NCBI GenBank assembly: GCA_017631635.1
Contig: JAGBSX010000042.1
Location: 2,330 to 66,329 of the forward strand
Source of the DNA: Clostridia bacterium
Lineage (GTDB): Bacteria > Bacillota > Clostridia > Christensenellales > RUG350
DNA: 64,000 bases
Direction: 5' to 3'
Of this stretch, positions 2,606 through 46,383 are shown one piece after another. How positions within the stretch are numbered: position 1 is the first letter of the stretch; every line of letters begins with the position of its first letter. Made by a program: the position numbers and the translations under genes. The notes beneath the pieces were generated by a model. The model was not told where the DNA came from. It did no database searches and saw only the letters and a program-made list of their open reading frames with translations.

Positions 2606-3238
2606 TTACATAGGATATCCTACGTATTTATTCTCTACCTCTAGGATATCAATATTGCCAAGGCAAGTATCTCTCAATACTTGGTAATGCCTCTCCTCTT
2701 GTCCTTGCTGTATACACAACACCAAACTCACTCTCTCGTCGTATATCTTGTCCTCTACTATCACCTGTTGGTCCATTAGATATCTCTCCACACTCCTCAG
2801 ATGCGTATAGTCAAAACTCACACGCACCACCGTAGAGGGAGCATATCTACTCACACCACATAGGTCTAGCACTCCACTACAAGACTTGACGTAAGCACCC
2901 ACTAGACCATTAGCGCCTAGTTTGATACCTCCAAAATATCTCACACTCACTACGCACACTTGCCTAAGATTTCGCTTGCGAATCACCTCTAGCATAGGCA
3001 TACCAGCCGTACCTTGTGGCTCTCCATCGTCGCTAAATCTCATCTCGTTGCCACCTATATCCGTGATATACGCATAGCAATAATGCGTAGCCATAGGATA
3101 TAGACCTCGCACCTCGTCTATGAAGTCCTTGGCTTCGTCTTGTGAGGTGACTACTCTGGCCAATGAGATAAATCTACTACGCTCTATGACGTACTCGTAG
3201 GTAGCAGGGCTTGTGATAGTCAAATATTCTCTCATCAC
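2606..3238 (-). CDS. yigZ: YigZ / IMPACT family protein
   Basis: 210 aa. SRFIS...ATHYCYAY...[15 protein letters not shown]...[18 protein letters not shown] matches conserved IMPACT-family blocks. Confidence 0.8.
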
Positions 3239-4434
3239 AATACCAACTTAATTCTATTCTTCTTGCCCTTGTATAGCACGCACTCGCCCTTGAGCATATC
3301 CTCGGTGATCTCGGCATTGACGTCGGTGACCTTGTCGTCGCCTATACGCACGCCACCACCCTCTATGAGTCTGCGAGCCTCTCCCTTGGATGGAGCGAAC
3401 TTGACCTCTACTAGTATGTCTACTACTCTGCCAGGCTTGACGGTGGCAGTAGCCATATTTGAGGTATCCCCACTAAAGGCTGCCTTGACCTGAGCCTCTA
3501 CCTTGTCAGCCTCATCTTTGCCGTGTATCATACTAGTCACTTCGTAGGCTAGCACTCTCTTCGCCTCGTTGATACGCTCGTCTTGGTACTTGGTGAGTTC
3601 TCTGATCTGCTCCATAGGCATAAAGGTCAACAACCTCAAGCACTTCTCTACGTCGGCATCATCTACGTTTCTCCAATATTGATAGAAGTCATATGGAGTA
3701 GTCTTGTCCTTATCAATCCATATAGCACCCTTGGCAGTCTTGCCCATCTTCTTACCTTCGGAGGTGGTGAGTAGTTCAAAGGTCATAGCATACGCTGGAT
3801 CTCCACTCTTGCGTCGTATGAGGTCTGCACCTGCCAATATATTTGACCATTGATCGTCGCCACCACATTGTAGTTTGACGCCATACTTGTCGTGTAGCAC
3901 CAAGAAGTCGTAGCCTTGCATAAGCATATAGTTAAACTCCAAGAAGGATAGTCCTTTCTCCATACGTGACTTGAAGCACTCTGCAGTCAACATACGATTG
4001 ACAGAGAAGTATGCTCCTATATCTCTCAAAAAGTCTACGTAGTTGAGGTCTAGTAGCCAGTCTGCATTGTTGACTATGATAGCGGCATTTTCTCCTGTAA
4101 AATCCAAAAACTTGGACATCTGCACCTTGAAGCACTCTACGTTGTGATCGATAGTCTCCTTGGTCATCATAGCGCGCATATCAGTACGACCTGATGGATC
4201 GCCAACCATAGCAGTACCACCACCTATGAGTATGATAGGCTTGTGTCCTGCCTTTTGTAGCCAACTCATTACCATTAGTTGAACAAAATGTCCCACGTGT
4301 AGGCTATCTGCAGTAGGGTCAAATCCTATATAAAATGGTACGCTCTCACTACCTAGTAGTTTGTACAAATCCTCCTCGTACACGGTTTGCTTGACAAATC
4401 CTCTAGCACGTAGGGTATCCAATATATTTTCCAT
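3235..4434 (-). CDS. tyrS: Tyrosine--tRNA ligase
   Basis: 399 aa. HIGH motif (LHVGHF), KMSKS motif (KMGKT), C-terminal S4-like domain ([17 protein letters not shown]). Confidence 0.95.
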
Positions 4435-42395: not shown

Positions 42396-43526
42396 ATGAT
42401 ATATCTAGACAATTCAGCCACCAGTAGATACCATCACAAATGCGTGCTACGAGCATACCTAGAGGGTGTCACCCTCGCCTCCAACCCAGGCCGTAGCGCT
42501 CACAAAGATAGCCTATATATGCTAGAGAAGGTAGAAAAAGTACGTGATAGTGTACGCCGACTAGTACACGCCGACTACAACGTAGTCTTCACCAAGAACT
42601 GTACCGAGGCTCTCAATCTCGCCATACTAGGCACTCTCAAGAGTGGCGACCACGTAGTCACCACCTCGTATGAGCACAATTCGGTACTAAGACCACTATA
42701 TCACCTAGAGAACCAAGGAGTCATATCACTCACCGTAGTCTCCCCAGATAGCGACGGTTATATCCAACCCTATCGTATCCAAGATACACTCCGACCAAAT
42801 ACTTCACTAGTGGTGTGCAATCATCTATCCAACGTGACTGGTATGATATGCGATATCGAAAAAATAGGCAAAATTTGTGCTAGAGAGGGAGTTAGATTTT
42901 TGGTAGACGGAGCGCAGAGCGTAGGACATATGGATATAGATATGATATCCTCAAATATAGATATGCTAGCCTGTCCCTCTCACAAAGGTCTAGGGGGAGT
43001 GATGGGTAGTGGATTTTTGGTATTCAATGACCGTAGCATACCCTCTCCTATCACATACGGTGGTACAGGTACGGAATCGGATAGTATCTATCAACCATTT
43101 AGCCCTCCTAGCAGTATGGAGAGTGGCACTCTCAACCTCCCTGGTATACTAGCGCTAGGGGAGGCTATCAGGACCAATATGCTAGACAGAGCGAATATCG
43201 TGAGCCGTATAATGGATATGACGGCGTATCTCATATCTCGCCTATCCTCTATCGACGAGGTGACCGTGTACACCAAACCCTCTAGTATATACGGCGTAGT
43301 ATCCTTTAATATAGGAGATATGGACTCTGGAGAGGTAGCAGACCTACTCTCCTCTCGCTACAATATCGCCGTGAGAGCAGGTATACATTGTGCTCCACTA
43401 TGCCACAAGTACCTCGGCACTCTAGACAGAGGCACGGTGCGTGCTAGTATCGGTGCGAACAACACCCTCCTAGATATTCGCCGACTATGTAGAGCCGTCT
43501 ACAAGATAGCCAAATCTCGTAGATAA
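42396..43526 (+). CDS. Class V aminotransferase / cysteine desulfurase-like
   Basis: MIYLDNSATS start and PLP-lysine region CPSHKGLGG. Start trimmed to the second ATG. Confidence 0.85.
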   Translation: MIYLDNSATSRYHHKCVLRAYLEGVTLASNPGRSAHKDSLYMLEKVEKVRDSVRRLVHADYNVVFTKNCTEALNLAILGTLKSGDHVVTTSYEHNSVLRPLYHLENQGVISLTVVSPDSDGYIQPYRIQDTLRPNTSLVVCNHLSNVTGMICDIEKIGKICAREGVRFLVDGAQSVGHMDIDMISSNIDMLACPSHKGLGGVMGSGFLVFNDRSIPSPITYGGTGTESDSIYQPFSPPSSMESGTLNLPGILALGEAIRTNMLDRANIVSRIMDMTAYLISRLSSIDEVTVYTKPSSIYGVVSFNIGDMDSGEVADLLSSRYNIAVRAGIHCAPLCHKYLGTLDRGTVRASIGANNTLLDIRRLCRAVYKIAKSRR

Positions 43527-43539
43527 AAAATGCCATATA

Positions 43540-43571
43540 AAAGCAACGATATTTTTCGTTGCTTTTTTGAT
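43540..43571. terminator. Terminator at the left edge of the AT-rich islet
   Basis: aagcaacga-tattttt-cgttgctt followed by ttttga. Confidence 0.7.
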
Positions 43572-44698
43572 TATCTATTTGATTTTCTCCTATTATGCTC
43601 CTTACAAAGCATTTGACAGTTGTCAATACTTGTTTTTCCACCCTCGCACCAAGGAGTAATATGGTCTGCCTCCATTTCATTTATTTCGTAGTGCGTTTTT
43701 TCACGGTGTTCGGCTACACAATGAGGGCAAACTCCTTGTTGACGTTCATACACTTTCCTTTTTTCATTATCTGTAAAAGAACGTATGCTGAGATGTTTTT
43801 CATCGCCAGATAGTAAATATTCATAAATTCCAGATGGCTTTGTCACATCATCATCTTGCATAAGAATTACTATTTTTTCTTCTAGTTCTTGAGGATTATA
43901 GACCTTATCTCCATACTTATTATACAAAATTCCCCAAGGCAACCCTTTCATCTCCTTGCGATACTTTGGGAATATTGTCTGTACCCAAGATATGACCGAT
44001 TGAAAATATTGCCAAAGCGGTGTGGCGTGGCTATCGTGCTGATGAATAGACATATAATCTTCTATCATCATATTTTCTCTATTAGCAAGCCAGTCCAAAG
44101 CCCTCTCCAAATAATCTTGTCTATTTACCTCTCCTTTTATATACTCTTTTGCCAAAAGGTATGCTACACAACCATTTTTAGAAAAATATCTCTTCGCATC
44201 AGAGAGCCACTCACCTGTATATATGGCATTGCGCAATTCTTGAGCCGTTAATTGCACTCCTGCTATATTGATTGTCTTAAACCAATCTAGTTTTTCCTTA
44301 TCATTGCCTTCGCAAATATAAATCATAAGTGGATAATCCAATATCTGATTTTGTTCTGCCACTGTTAGATTGTGAAATTTTGCAGTCCTTCCAAAAGCCT
44401 CTAGACAAACGGAAAATTTATTGTCAACGTATTGACAAATAGAAATGGTGCGTTGTTGTCCGTCCAAAAGTTCATAATTACCACTCTCATCTTCTACCCA
44501 ATACATTACGTTGAGAGGAAAGCCTTTGACTATCGTTTCTATGACTGCATTTCGTTCTTTATCTTTGTAGACAAATTCTCGCTGAAAAGCAGGGCGAATA
44601 TTCAACCTACCACCATAACCTACCACACCATTTTCTTGACTGTCCATATATCCCTTGACAACGTCTCTTATTTTAATTTCGTATAATTCTATTTTCAT
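43571..44698 (-). CDS. DUF262 (ParB/Srx-like, DGQQR) domain fused to a C-terminal HNH endonuclease
   Basis: 375 aa. IRPAFQREFVY and LLDGQQRTISI (DUF262 motifs). C-terminus CPHC...ADHITPWCEGGKTSIDNCQMLCKEHNRRKSN (HNH). Confidence 0.85.
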   Translation of the reverse strand: MKIELYEIKIRDVVKGYMDSQENGVVGYGGRLNIRPAFQREFVYKDKERNAVIETIVKGFPLNVMYWVEDESGNYELLDGQQRTISICQYVDNKFSVCLEAFGRTAKFHNLTVAEQNQILDYPLMIYICEGNDKEKLDWFKTINIAGVQLTAQELRNAIYTGEWLSDAKRYFSKNGCVAYLLAKEYIKGEVNRQDYLERALDWLANRENMMIEDYMSIHQHDSHATPLWQYFQSVISWVQTIFPKYRKEMKGLPWGILYNKYGDKVYNPQELEEKIVILMQDDDVTKPSGIYEYLLSGDEKHLSIRSFTDNEKRKVYERQQGVCPHCVAEHREKTHYEINEMEADHITPWCEGGKTSIDNCQMLCKEHNRRKSNR

Positions 44699-45841
44699 TT
44701 ACTTTTTTCTCCTTTTTATAACTATTCTCATATAAGGAATAACGGGCTTTCCGTTTTTATCATAATAAGCAAGAACTGGATGGTCTTCCTTAATAGAGCC
44801 TTTGCCACCAAATTTATAATAATCATCTACAAATTTTTTTGTAAGCCCCTTAGGTGTTAATTCTCTGTATAAATTGCCTTGTCCTTGCCCAACAATCTCA
44901 AATTGCTCAGGGTTATACTTGTCAATAAAAGTTATAGGCACACCCATTTCTCCTTCGTAGTCGTATGGAATATCTGACACTTTGTCCACATTTATAGCAG
45001 GGTAGTTATCGTATTCAGGATATTCATCAATTGTATATTTTTTGTAACAAATTAATTCTTCATAATGTTTTTTGATTTTTAAATTTGTATACCAATTAAC
45101 TGCTGGAACTTTTATGTAATTATCATTAGGATCAAATCCTTTTGATTTTACAAATTTTTTGTTTGCTTCAAGAGTGTTGTCATATACTGACTTATATATC
45201 ATACTTAAATTAAATCCAAATCCTGCCCAAAGTTTATTCTTCTTGATTAGAGTAAAAATTTCTTTATAAGTTATTGCGTTCATATTACCTATTATTATAA
45301 ACTTTTTATCATATTCAATAAGTTGTGCTATATATTCACGAAAAAGTGAAAATGGAGGATTTGTTACTACTATATCGCACTCTTTTAGCAACTCTATACA
45401 CTCATCACTGCGAAAATCTCCATTGCCTTTTAGTAAACAAAGAGAGTTTTTGTCATTTTTCAACAAATATTCTACGTCCGCCAAATCTACCGCACCATCA
45501 TTATTATAATCTAACACTTCACTTATCTCTATCTTGTATGCCTTTCTATTATTGTTTGGAATAGCAGTTGCTTGCACATCTTCCAAAAAGGAAAGTTGAC
45601 TATACGCGATAGGAGAATTGTCGTAACTGGTGCAAATTAGTTTCTTGAGACCAAGATAATTAAAATTCATAGCAAAATACTTAAAAAAATTGCTCTCAAA
45701 TGGGTCATCACAATTACAAAACACTATTTTATCCTTAAAATATTCTTTGTAATGCTCTAATTCTTTTTCAATATCAACAAGTTGAGTATAGAACTCGTCT
45801 TTCTTCGATTTCTTTGCCTTAATCAAATTTTCCTTTGCCAT
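44699..45841 (-). CDS. EcoRI-methylase-family N6-adenine DNA methyltransferase
   Basis: N-terminus KKDEFYTQLVDIEKELEHYKEYFKDKIVFCNCDDP and catalytic VVTNPPFSLFREY (NPPF). Start trimmed to MAKENLIK (AAAGGAG RBS). Its stop TAA abuts the ATG of the nuclease gene. Confidence 0.85.
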   Translation of the reverse strand: MAKENLIKAKKSKKDEFYTQLVDIEKELEHYKEYFKDKIVFCNCDDPFESNFFKYFAMNFNYLGLKKLICTSYDNSPIAYSQLSFLEDVQATAIPNNNRKAYKIEISEVLDYNNDGAVDLADVEYLLKNDKNSLCLLKGNGDFRSDECIELLKECDIVVTNPPFSLFREYIAQLIEYDKKFIIIGNMNAITYKEIFTLIKKNKLWAGFGFNLSMIYKSVYDNTLEANKKFVKSKGFDPNDNYIKVPAVNWYTNLKIKKHYEELICYKKYTIDEYPEYDNYPAINVDKVSDIPYDYEGEMGVPITFIDKYNPEQFEIVGQGQGNLYRELTPKGLTKKFVDDYYKFGGKGSIKEDHPVLAYYDKNGKPVIPYMRIVIKRRKK

Positions 45842-45881
45842 TGCTTTGGTACTCCTTTTGTATAAAGTCGCACCTTTTCTT

Positions 45882-45914
45882 AAAATAAAAAAGTGCGTAA
45901 CCTGAGTTACGCAC
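45882..45914 (-). terminator. Intrinsic terminator about 40 nt upstream of the methyltransferase ATG
   Basis: Minus strand gtgcgtaac-tcag-gttacgcac followed by ttttttatttt. Confidence 0.75.
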
Positions 45915-46083
45915 ATAAAACGCAAACTCTGGTTATCGCCAGATAAAACCTAATGAAAATGAGTAAACACTCCCACTTGAGTTTGCATTTTTAGCAAAGT
46001 ACAATAATGGGAGTATGACCAAAAAAGAGTATAGTTATCCTCTAGTCTACTCATTTTCATTTTTTTATTAAGTTTTATCTGGC
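45884..46083 (-). ncRNA. Unclassified ~200-nt structured leader or ncRNA preceding the methyltransferase-nuclease operon
   Basis: Has its own promoter and terminator. Long imperfect inverted repeat: 46048-46082 pairs with 45939-45965. Inner stem actccca/tgggagt. A 13-nt apical segment aaaatgcaaactc is complementary to gagtttgcgtttt, just 5' of the terminator. Confidence 0.45.
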
Positions 46084-46089
46084 AAATTT

Positions 46090-46117
46090 AGTATATCACA
46101 CTTTTATACTTTTTCAA
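46090..46117 (-). promoter_or_regulatory. Sigma-70-type promoter with extended -10, driving the leader and probably the R-M-like operon
   Basis: Minus strand TTGAAA-16 nt-(TGa)TATACT. Confidence 0.55.
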
Positions 46118-46159
46118 ACTTTTTTAATCTTTTTTACAATTTTTTATTAATAATCATCA

Positions 46160-46190
46160 AAAAAAAGCGGTGTACACCGCTTTTTTGATA
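46160..46190. terminator. Bidirectional terminator at the right edge of the islet
   Basis: aaaaaaaagcggtgtacaccgctttttt. Confidence 0.8.
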
Positions 46191-46194
46191 TTCT

Positions 46195-46383
46195 CTACCA
46201 GTCTTCTCTACTCTTCGTTCTATCCTTGACGTCGTCGTAGTACTCAAAGTACTTCTCTCTATATCTATCTACCGATTGCGTAGAGGTCTTTTTCTTCTTT
46301 GCCTTTTCTCGCTCCTCTGGGGTGGTCTCTCTCACCTCAAAGTCTCCATATCCACTAAAGTGTATTTGACCATCTCTATCCAT
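46195..46383 (-). CDS. Small, highly charged hypothetical protein
   Basis: 62 aa. Starts 2 nt after the rsmF stop, so it is probably translationally coupled. Confidence 0.4.
   Translation of the reverse strand: MDRDGQIHFSGYGDFEVRETTPEEREKAKKKKTSTQSVDRYREKYFEYYDDVKDRTKSREDW

Follow-up and report, generated by a model that had tools for sequence, protein, structure and literature searches.

A variable EcoRI-family adenine methyltransferase coupled to a constant DUF262-HNH nuclease: a possible restriction-modification system with Type III-like logic

In the target-recognition domains of Type I HsdS and Type III Mod proteins, type-conserved modules undergo localised and repeated exchange, and a variable central methylase module next to a constant restriction subunit is an established pattern of Type III mod/res loci, in which ATP switches the Res enzyme into a sliding state. 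The EcoRI family of methyltransferases spans different specificities, since M.EcoRI recognises GAATTC and M.MpnI modifies one strand of the asymmetric sequence CTAT (PMC3536716). Within M.EcoRI, the H235N substitution changes both intercalation and discrimination (PMC2396439). Restriction enzymes of the HNH type were sorted in a 2008 survey into 14 subfamilies named only by enzyme, with no mention of DUF262 or ParB (PMC2441816). Here we analyse a stretch of 64,000 nucleotides (nt) of contig JAGBSX010000042.1 (assembly GCA_017631635.1, Clostridia bacterium), hereafter the window, to whose positions all coordinates refer. It carries an EcoRI-family methyltransferase followed by a nuclease that combines a DUF262 domain with an HNH domain; we call them M and R, respectively, whether gene or protein is meant.

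Both genes lie on the minus strand. Their extents, and the domains and motifs of R, given in amino acids (aa) where they refer to protein, are as follows.

44699-45841, minus strand: M, EcoRI-family N6-adenine DNA methyltransferase, 380 aa (Pfam, PADLOC and identity to M.EcoRI)
43571-44698, minus strand: R, DUF262 (ParB-like, nucleoside triphosphate (NTP)-binding)-HNH nuclease, 375 aa (Pfam GmrSD_N and HNH; PADLOC REase_II)
44219-44599, minus strand: DUF262/GmrSD_N domain of R, aa 34-160 (Pfam PF03235, E 1.7e-20, 74.4 bits, cut-off 33.2)
44567-44587, minus strand: motif FQREFVY of R, aa 38-44
44450-44464, minus strand: motif DGQQR of R, aa 79-83
43574-43729, minus strand: HNH nuclease domain of R, aa 324-375, with a CxxC...DH...N...C..H zinc-finger His-Me motif (Pfam HNH, PF01844, E 1.8e-07)

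The first-pass annotation of this DNA, made from the letters alone, had named the EcoRI_methylase, DUF262 and HNH domains, and the Pfam comparison it proposed matched all three; each motif that it quoted for the two proteins (NPPF, DEFYTQ, CNCDDP, FQREFVY and DGQQR) was also located where it had been placed. M belongs to the EcoRI_methylase family (PF13651), which it matches over its full length and above the gathering score (E 1.7e-137, 458.8 bits, cut-off 26.4, profile positions 1-344 of 345), and it carries NPPF at aa 161-164 (45350-45361), along with DEFYTQ at aa 15-20 and CNCDDP at aa 42-47. The PADLOC model MTase_II matches M with an E-value of 2.8e-112. The longest open reading frame (ORF) of M, 44699-45925, begins with a TTG at 45925; the ATG at 45841, giving 380 aa, is likely the true start, because an AAGGAG ribosome-binding site precedes it and gene callers chose the equivalent start on a same-species contig. 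No nucleotide separates the TAA stop of M (44699-44701) from the ATG of R (44696-44698), as the first reading had it. In R, the HNH elements CPHC, ADH, NCQMLC and HNRRK lie within aa 324-372 and include the invariant residues C324, C327, D345, H346, N360, C365 and N369.

The association of the two genes is general. Homologues of R form more than 8,000 clusters at 90% identity, and a collection with one genome per species holds at least 548 matches. The best 80 of these are 57-81% identical to R and come from Bacillota, Bacteroidota, Campylobacterota, Chloroflexota, Spirochaetota, Verrucomicrobiota and candidate-phyla bacteria, together with one contig labelled as a Pacearchaeota archaeon. The methylase adjoins R in all 78 informative loci among these 80, the other two having no upstream DNA on their contigs, and no solitary R was found among those of the best 80 with enough flanking DNA. 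An EcoRI-family methylase likewise lies directly upstream of R in each of the seven annotated plasmid and phage records inspected, namely plasmids of Ligilactobacillus, Aeromonas, Gordonia, Enterococcus faecium, Macrococcoides and an uncultured bacterium, and Flavobacterium phage laban6-1; these span Bacillota, Pseudomonadota and Actinomycetota in addition to the phage. The distance from the M stop to the R start is at most 60 nt in 129 of 143 loci, a 4-nt overlap being the commonest arrangement. The pair whose co-occurrence was to be checked is therefore conserved, in 78 of 78 informative genome loci and seven of seven plasmid or phage records, and an obligatory, translationally coupled linkage of this kind is what a restriction-modification pair predicts. 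M and R thus make up a small mobile two-gene module that is very widespread in bacteria.

Where the spacing is wider, other genes have been inserted between M and R. Two such loci, L082 (1391-7098) and L085 (3394-7083), hold 1.6-3.7 kb of other genes at this position; one gene of the L085 insert resembles, by eye, a Fic/DOC-type protein, and the L082 insert contains several unknowns. The R of L082 has lost its zinc-finger cysteines and kept the DH motif. A GenBank record labelled 'UNVERIFIED: Bacteriophage sp.' (MT835503, our L184), in which M overlaps an R of 84% identity, was not counted as phage carriage: MATE-type efflux and ABC transporter genes, recognised by eye, adjoin the pair, so this is probably bacterial DNA. 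Among the homologues of M, one protein of 632 aa with an EcoRI_methylase domain (P0122, E 3.7e-181 to M) may have arisen through fusion or methylase duplication.

The two partners differ sharply in how they vary. Across the 144 loci that hold both M and R, we computed the mean pairwise identity of alignment columns, which is 60.6% for R and 47.3% for M; R is thus more conserved than M, whereas in Type II systems the nuclease is usually the less conserved partner. Three segments of M are hypervariable, against 65-86% column identity in its conserved blocks.

45437-45616, minus strand: hypervariable N-terminal insert of M, aa 76-135, column identity 19-40%
45095-45220, minus strand: hypervariable segment V1 of M, aa 208-249, candidate target-recognition module, column identity 13-31%
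44762-44896, minus strand: hypervariable C-terminal segment V2 of M, aa 316-360, column identity 2-17%

V1 corresponds to aa 187-225 of M.EcoRI and ends 10 residues before H235. In R, the lowest 15-aa block still reaches 28% column identity and is one short loop; there is no hypervariable block like those of M. The conserved motifs are nearly or fully invariant in the same set, with NPPF in 143 of the 144 M proteins and, in R, DGQQR and QR[EN][FY] in all 144 and the HNH DH in 138.

Single-linkage typing of V1 at 45% identity, over the 144 loci and M.EcoRI, yields 15 sequence types, each conserved internally, and some of them (such as types 0, 7 and 9) still share a motif. R takes no account of these types: its median identity is 62.8% within V1 types and 62.8% between them. 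Four pairs of loci (L117/L118, L029/L140, L103/L104 and L117/L121) combine R proteins that are 99.2-99.5% identical with V1 segments of different types, and when R is clustered at 90% identity or more, six of the 15 clusters contain more than one V1 type, one cluster of five members having five. The same mosaic is visible in the DNA. L029 and L140 are mostly 83-100% identical over M and R and drop to 45-47% at V1, and L117 and L118 share an R of ~100% identity, with 52-55% at V1 and 0-32% at V2; V2 assorts independently of V1, as this last pair illustrates. The variable segments of M are thus shuffled by recombination, and R has none. R does not diverge along with the variable segments, which counts against the co-divergence of a Type II pair only if V1 and V2 set specificity. 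In the literature searched, this decoupling of a variable M from a constant R seems to be undescribed.

M.EcoRI itself belongs in this picture. M is 47% identical to M.EcoRI of the Escherichia coli EcoRI plasmid (aa 6-332), which is encoded next to the annotated R.EcoRI. The identity of M.EcoRI to the family methylases has a median of 51% and a maximum of 60%, compared with a median of 54% among the family methylases themselves, and a neighbour-joining tree places M.EcoRI among those that are partnered with a DUF262-HNH protein. One methylase family therefore serves two unrelated nucleases. The V1 type of M.EcoRI is common to only two of the 144 loci. The C-terminal tail, ELIKFRKGVDEKDLSINGKCPYFRILIK, of M.EcoRI (L101, the E. 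coli EcoRI plasmid, 2718-3698) is nearly identical to the tails of some DUF262-HNH-partnered methylases (L091, L020 and L016) and its V1 differs from theirs, so that M.EcoRI appears to be a mosaic drawn from the same pool of modules.

The fold of R is less easily placed. A PDB sequence search gave weak HNH matches for R and no match for M; the closest PDB relatives of the R HNH domain are the Gme HNH protein (4h9d), the Cas9 HNH domain and McrA. A profile search aligned BrxU (7p9k) with aa 35-70 of R, the region of the QR motif, at a marginal E of 0.07 over 36 residues. No match to DUF1524 (PF07510) was found in R, whose C-terminus is instead the PF01844 HNH, with HNH_5 and HNH_4 below their cut-offs. 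The central part (aa 165-310) is conserved and helical and has no domain match. An AlphaFold2 model of R was of moderate quality (predicted local distance difference test (pLDDT) 70, predicted template-modelling score (pTM) 0.41), with a poorly resolved centre at aa 144-228, and was not used for the mechanism; a Foldseek search of the PDB with it returned no match at E 0.001 or below, and only weak ParB/Noc and HNH matches.

R belongs to a family that is already catalogued as a restriction enzyme, because the PADLOC Type II model REase_II (PDLC03418) covers it end to end (residues 1-375 of 375 against 1-372 of 372, E 1.5e-140). Both elements of a PADLOC-style Type II system, a full-length REase match and an adjacent cognate methyltransferase, are present at the locus. 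Weaker PADLOC matches to NsnA, PD-T4-2_A, HEC-05 and SspE concern the N-terminus of R. NCBI names the homologues of R merely 'DUF262 domain-containing protein'. The expectation that no equivalent system had been listed is thus at least partly contradicted by the PADLOC models, although no published characterisation was found: a paper on a DUF262-HNH nuclease with an EcoRI-family methylase did not turn up in the literature searched (REBASE lay outside that search), the supplements of the methylome survey by Blow et al. mention neither EcoRI_methylase, PF13651, DUF262 nor EcoRI, and the PADLOC publications consulted do not describe how the restriction-modification models were built. As a restriction enzyme, the architecture of R seems to be undescribed in the literature searched.

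Based on the above data, we propose that M and R form a restriction-modification system with Type III-like logic, in which M would set the target and an NTP-gated nuclease would follow; this proposal is a tentative one, with a chance that we place a little short of even. It builds on directly supported observations, namely the domain content of the two proteins, the invariance of their catalytic motifs, an obligatory and coupled M-R linkage across many phyla, plasmids and one phage, and the presence or absence, among strains of one species, of the island that carries them. M is predicted to act as an S-adenosylmethionine-dependent N6-adenine methyltransferase that marks host DNA. R would join a ParB-like nucleotide-binding switch (DUF262, with DGQQR) to an HNH zinc-finger active site and would cut unmarked DNA. 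The N-terminal insert, V1 and V2 probably form or contain the target-recognition module of M, and specificity would differ between family members. R itself may not read the target sequence, because it has no variable module and because R proteins of 99.2-99.5% identity stand beside different V1 types. If the variable modules of M do set specificity, a constant R would have to be either directed by M or a sensor of the mark regardless of its context. We favour direction by M, probably within an M-R complex, by analogy with the dependence of Res on Mod in Type III systems. Binding or hydrolysis of NTP by the ParB-like domain, to which the conserved motifs point, could gate or move the HNH nuclease, much as the ATP-induced switch to sliding does for Type III Res.

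Taken one step further, the pair might stand for a kind of restriction-modification system that has gone unrecognised and that, although its components are unrelated to those of Type III, works in an analogous way. In it, the shuffled modules of M would supply all specificity, and a small ParB-fold NTP-switch HNH nuclease without a reader of its own would be recruited or licensed by M at unmodified sites. We hold this wider claim with somewhat less assurance than the proposal itself. The first-pass annotation had suggested an R-M-like pair in which the nuclease is held in check by adenine methylation; the conserved and coupled linkage supports this in part, whereas the architecture proves to be already catalogued and the flanking repeats that it cited, described below, are no insertion footprint. 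Were our proposal correct, the target could be changed by swapping short modules of M under a constant R, a ParB-type nucleotide switch would be linked to restriction, and the pair could offer a small nuclease that is aimed by a second, exchangeable protein. If M does give R its specificity, the literature searched contains no description of such a mechanism of restriction, which would reside in one of the commonest two-gene restriction-modification cassettes.

Several points weigh against this proposal. M.EcoRI falls within the family at 51% median and 60% maximum identity, and all members could share one site; methylases at such identity often do, and M.EcoRI is an independent monomer beside an independent R.EcoRI. 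The poorly resolved centre of the R model (aa 144-228) could hide a DNA reader, R is filed by PADLOC under ordinary Type II, and the role of the variable segments in specificity, the contact between M and R and the dependence on NTP are all inferred from sequence patterns. An orthodox Type II system, which is the main rival and which we consider less likely than our proposal, would have one fixed site, found and cut by R on its own as a sequence-specific HNH endonuclease and modified by all of the methylases, with the variable segments of M as tolerated surface elements; the closeness of M to M.EcoRI would make this site possibly GAATTC or one with an AATT core. PADLOC does place both proteins in Type II (R as REase, M as MTase), M.EcoRI is as close to the family methylases as these are to one another and nests among them in the tree, a site that never changes would predict just such a constant R, and the conserved helical centre of R (aa 165-310) could read DNA. 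However, localised and repeated replacement of V1 and V2, with conservation inside each type, is the mark of selected modules and not of neutral loops, and the conserved remainder of M leaves scant space for a recognition domain, even though specificities vary within the EcoRI family. R proteins that are 57-81% identical across phyla are more conserved than is usual among orthodox Type II endonucleases. The presence of DGQQR in all 144 R proteins and the lack of co-variation in R point, if indirectly, away from an enzyme that reads its own site independently of NTP. The host window shows no avoidance of GAATTC (observed/expected ratio (O/E) 0.86) or AATT (1.05), which is weak evidence. Even if the orthodox account were true, an HNH-fold partner of M.EcoRI-like methylases would still be of practical interest.

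Other explanations dispense with contact between M and R. In one, which we regard as improbable, R resembles SspE: its DUF262 domain senses N6-methyladenine (m6A) regardless of sequence context, the mark blocks the nuclease on self DNA or, as proposed for SspE, licenses it, and any specificity of M suffices. The characterised DUF262 defence proteins GmrSD, BrxU and SspE couple this domain to DNA modification and NTP, and Dazbog is suspected to do so (PMC10952713); the constancy of R beside a varying M, the obligatory linkage and the weak N-terminal matches of R to the PADLOC models NsnA, PD-T4-2_A, HEC-05 and SspE also agree with such a reader. A sequence-blind nuclease, however, could hardly detect the absence of marks at sparse sites. 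R is moreover remote from the solved DUF262 proteins (BrxU at E 0.07 over 36 residues) and has the classical HNH (PF01844) in place of DUF1524, and a complex would account for the tight translational coupling no less well. The first-pass annotation had offered, as its alternative, a dual operon of a methylase and a type IV-like nuclease; in this form the methylase would be protective or regulatory and the nuclease would act independently on foreign modified DNA. The combination of DUF262 with a His-Me finger does resemble the type IV enzymes GmrSD and BrxU. Yet type IV enzymes need no cognate methylase, and here every informative locus has one, with the order of the genes constant and the stop of M overlapping the start of R, no solitary R having appeared among the best 80 of at least 548 genome matches with enough flanking DNA. 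Two separate functions are poorly compatible with such obligatory linkage and translational coupling, and we give them very little credence.

In the host window outside the island, several 4-bp palindromes are strongly avoided under a maximal-order Markov expectation (O/E of 0.12 for AGCT, 0.18 for GGCC, 0.22 for GATC, 0.27 for CATG and 0.34 for CGCG), which suggests long exposure to other restriction systems with 4-bp sites. We also considered palindrome avoidance as a guide to the recognition site of the present system; it cannot be assigned to this system, because the island is strain-variable.

The low-G+C (guanine plus cytosine) block with methyltransferase and nuclease genes that had been noted at first sight was borne out as an island of 2,607 bp, with the following limits and signals.

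43581-46187, no strand: strain-variable low-G+C island, 2,607 bp, comprising M, R, a leader and one terminator (alignment with island-free strains)
43539-43566, plus strand: host terminator-like hairpin between the cysteine desulfurase gene and R, carrying one copy of GCTTTTTTGAT; unchanged in island-free strains
46161-46186, plus strand: island-borne bidirectional terminator-like hairpin, carrying the rsmF-side copy of GCTTTTTTGAT; absent from island-free strains
43578-43589, plus strand: junction repeat copy A, TTTGATTTTCTC, within the last codons of R (R-K-S-N) (comparison with island-free strains)
46184-46195, plus strand: junction repeat copy B, TTTGATATTCTC, immediately following the stop codon of a 62-aa gene (comparison with island-free strains)

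The G+C content is 0.329 in the island versus 0.427 across the remaining window, and locally 0.25-0.37 within the block versus ~0.45 in its flanks. M and R are the only genes of the island, which, as had been stated, is without a recombinase: it holds no integrase or transposase gene, and the repeats support no target-site duplication. On the left it is flanked by a class-V aminotransferase/cysteine desulfurase gene on the plus strand that ends at 43526, and on the right by a 62-aa ORF (46195-46383, minus strand) directly downstream of rsmF. The placement of the block between cysteine desulfurase and rsmF therefore holds on the desulfurase side, but on the other side the nearest neighbour is the 62-aa ORF. 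This ORF is rich in lysine, glutamate and arginine, has no Pfam match, and has a counterpart of 60 aa at the same position in a sister species.

Contigs of the same species differ in the presence of the island; three of them (L093, L094 and L095) lack it and have flanks of 97.8-98.6% identity. The 11-mer GCTTTTTTGAT, pointed out earlier as a pair of flanking direct repeats, does have just two occurrences in the window (43561 and 46179; 0.01 expected), and the remark that both copies sit in terminator tails was correct, the tails being those of terminator-like hairpins. They are not insertion footprints, however, as one belongs to the island-borne terminator and the other to a host terminator. 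We rejected GCTTTTTTGAT as a target-site duplication: the host copy is also found in strains without the island, 9 nt beyond the joint. The repeat therefore arose by chance, from two hairpins that both have A/T tails.

The actual junction repeat is the 12-mer TTTGAT(T/A)TTCTC, of which island-free strains have a single hybrid copy, TTTAATATTCTC. These alleles keep AAATAGATAA, the native final 10 nt of R, and match the product expected from recombination between the two 12-mers; for both reasons we rejected them as a pristine pre-insertion site. Homologues of R share one end codon with a similar terminal sequence. Because R homologues end alike, the island-free alleles hold a native R tail, and judged by this tail they are more likely deletion derivatives formed between the 12-mers; homology-assisted insertion of the island at the 12-mer is possible. 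A sister species, with a cysteine desulfurase of 78% identity, shares the gene order but has another spacer and lacks the island; it is too diverged to show the direction of the event. The instance in the window is thus an ordinary strain-variable defence islet and an ordinary member of a catalogued family.

Two candidate expression signals precede M.

46090-46117, minus strand: promoter-like TTGAAA-16-TATACT with an extended TG, upstream of M (consensus match only, 10 of 12, best-scoring in the region)
45893-45914, minus strand: leader hairpin GUGCGUAAC-UCAG-GUUACGCAC followed by U6, ~50 nt before the M start codon (terminator-like site, 9 bp)

The 125-nt leader (45836-45960, minus strand) has a folding energy of -34.5 kcal/mol (z -3.5), and its hairpin could, to judge from its sequence, serve as an attenuator, limiting operon expression or delaying it. 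As a candidate Rfam small RNA, the leader gave a single sub-threshold match to Atu_C8 (E 0.064), which we treated as chance. No controller gene is apparent in the interval from the terminator to M, which contains neither an ORF of at least 50 aa nor a plausible helix-turn-helix ORF. On the 7.5-kb plasmid pLa3_1 of Ligilactobacillus agilis (L005), a gene for a MerR-family regulator (322-795) lies directly upstream of M and may act as a controller; the window has no such gene.

Set beside known systems, R shares with HNH-type Type II enzymes such as KpnI, NlaIII, SphI, Hpy99I and MnlI an HNH/His-Me centre and a cognate methylase (PMC2441816), and differs from them by its additional NTP-binding domain. 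The DUF262 region of R is matched by NsnA of Menshen (E 2.2e-32, aa 30-166) and by PD-T4-2_A (E 1e-14), but these matches are limited to the N-terminal third to half of R, and both systems have other partners (in Menshen an OLD-family nuclease, PMC10952713) and no EcoRI-family methylase. With GmrSD, BrxU and SspE, R has in common an N-terminal DUF262 with QR...DGQQR and a C-terminal His-Me finger (PMC4619093; PMC10952713). Those proteins, unlike R, measure ~600-800 aa (587 for BrxU and 771 for SspE in the PDB) and carry DUF1524, whereas R is shorter and its zinc finger is an HNH of PF01844. GmrSD and BrxU work on modified DNA without a partner, and SspE is partnered with a phosphorothioation system, not a methylase; R is always paired with an m6A methylase. 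The architecture ascribed to R at the outset, that of GmrSD and SspE, is thus shared as far as the N-terminal domain family goes, but R is not a member of the GmrSD/BrxU/SspE group, because DUF1524 is missing from it and a methylase always accompanies it.

The EcoRI system (Type IIP) is close on the side of the methylase, which is of the same family and shares DEFYTQ, CNCDDP and NPPF, and both systems are two-gene mobile cassettes found on small plasmids. It differs in its nuclease, since R.EcoRI is a PD-(D/E)XK enzyme and R an unrelated DUF262-HNH protein of 375 aa, and in gene order, which is R then M on the EcoRI plasmid and M then R here. With Type III systems the parts are not homologous: Res is an SF2 helicase joined to PD-(D/E)XK, of ~900-1,000 aa, and R has ~375 aa, with ParB-like and HNH domains. 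Type III signatures are absent, M having no TypeIII_RM_meth or N6_N4_Mtase match in Pfam and R no REase_III match in PADLOC. The likeness to Type III Mod and Res is one of organisation, with the methylase gene first and coupled to that of the nuclease, exchangeable modules in the methylase and a conserved NTP-switch nuclease beside it.

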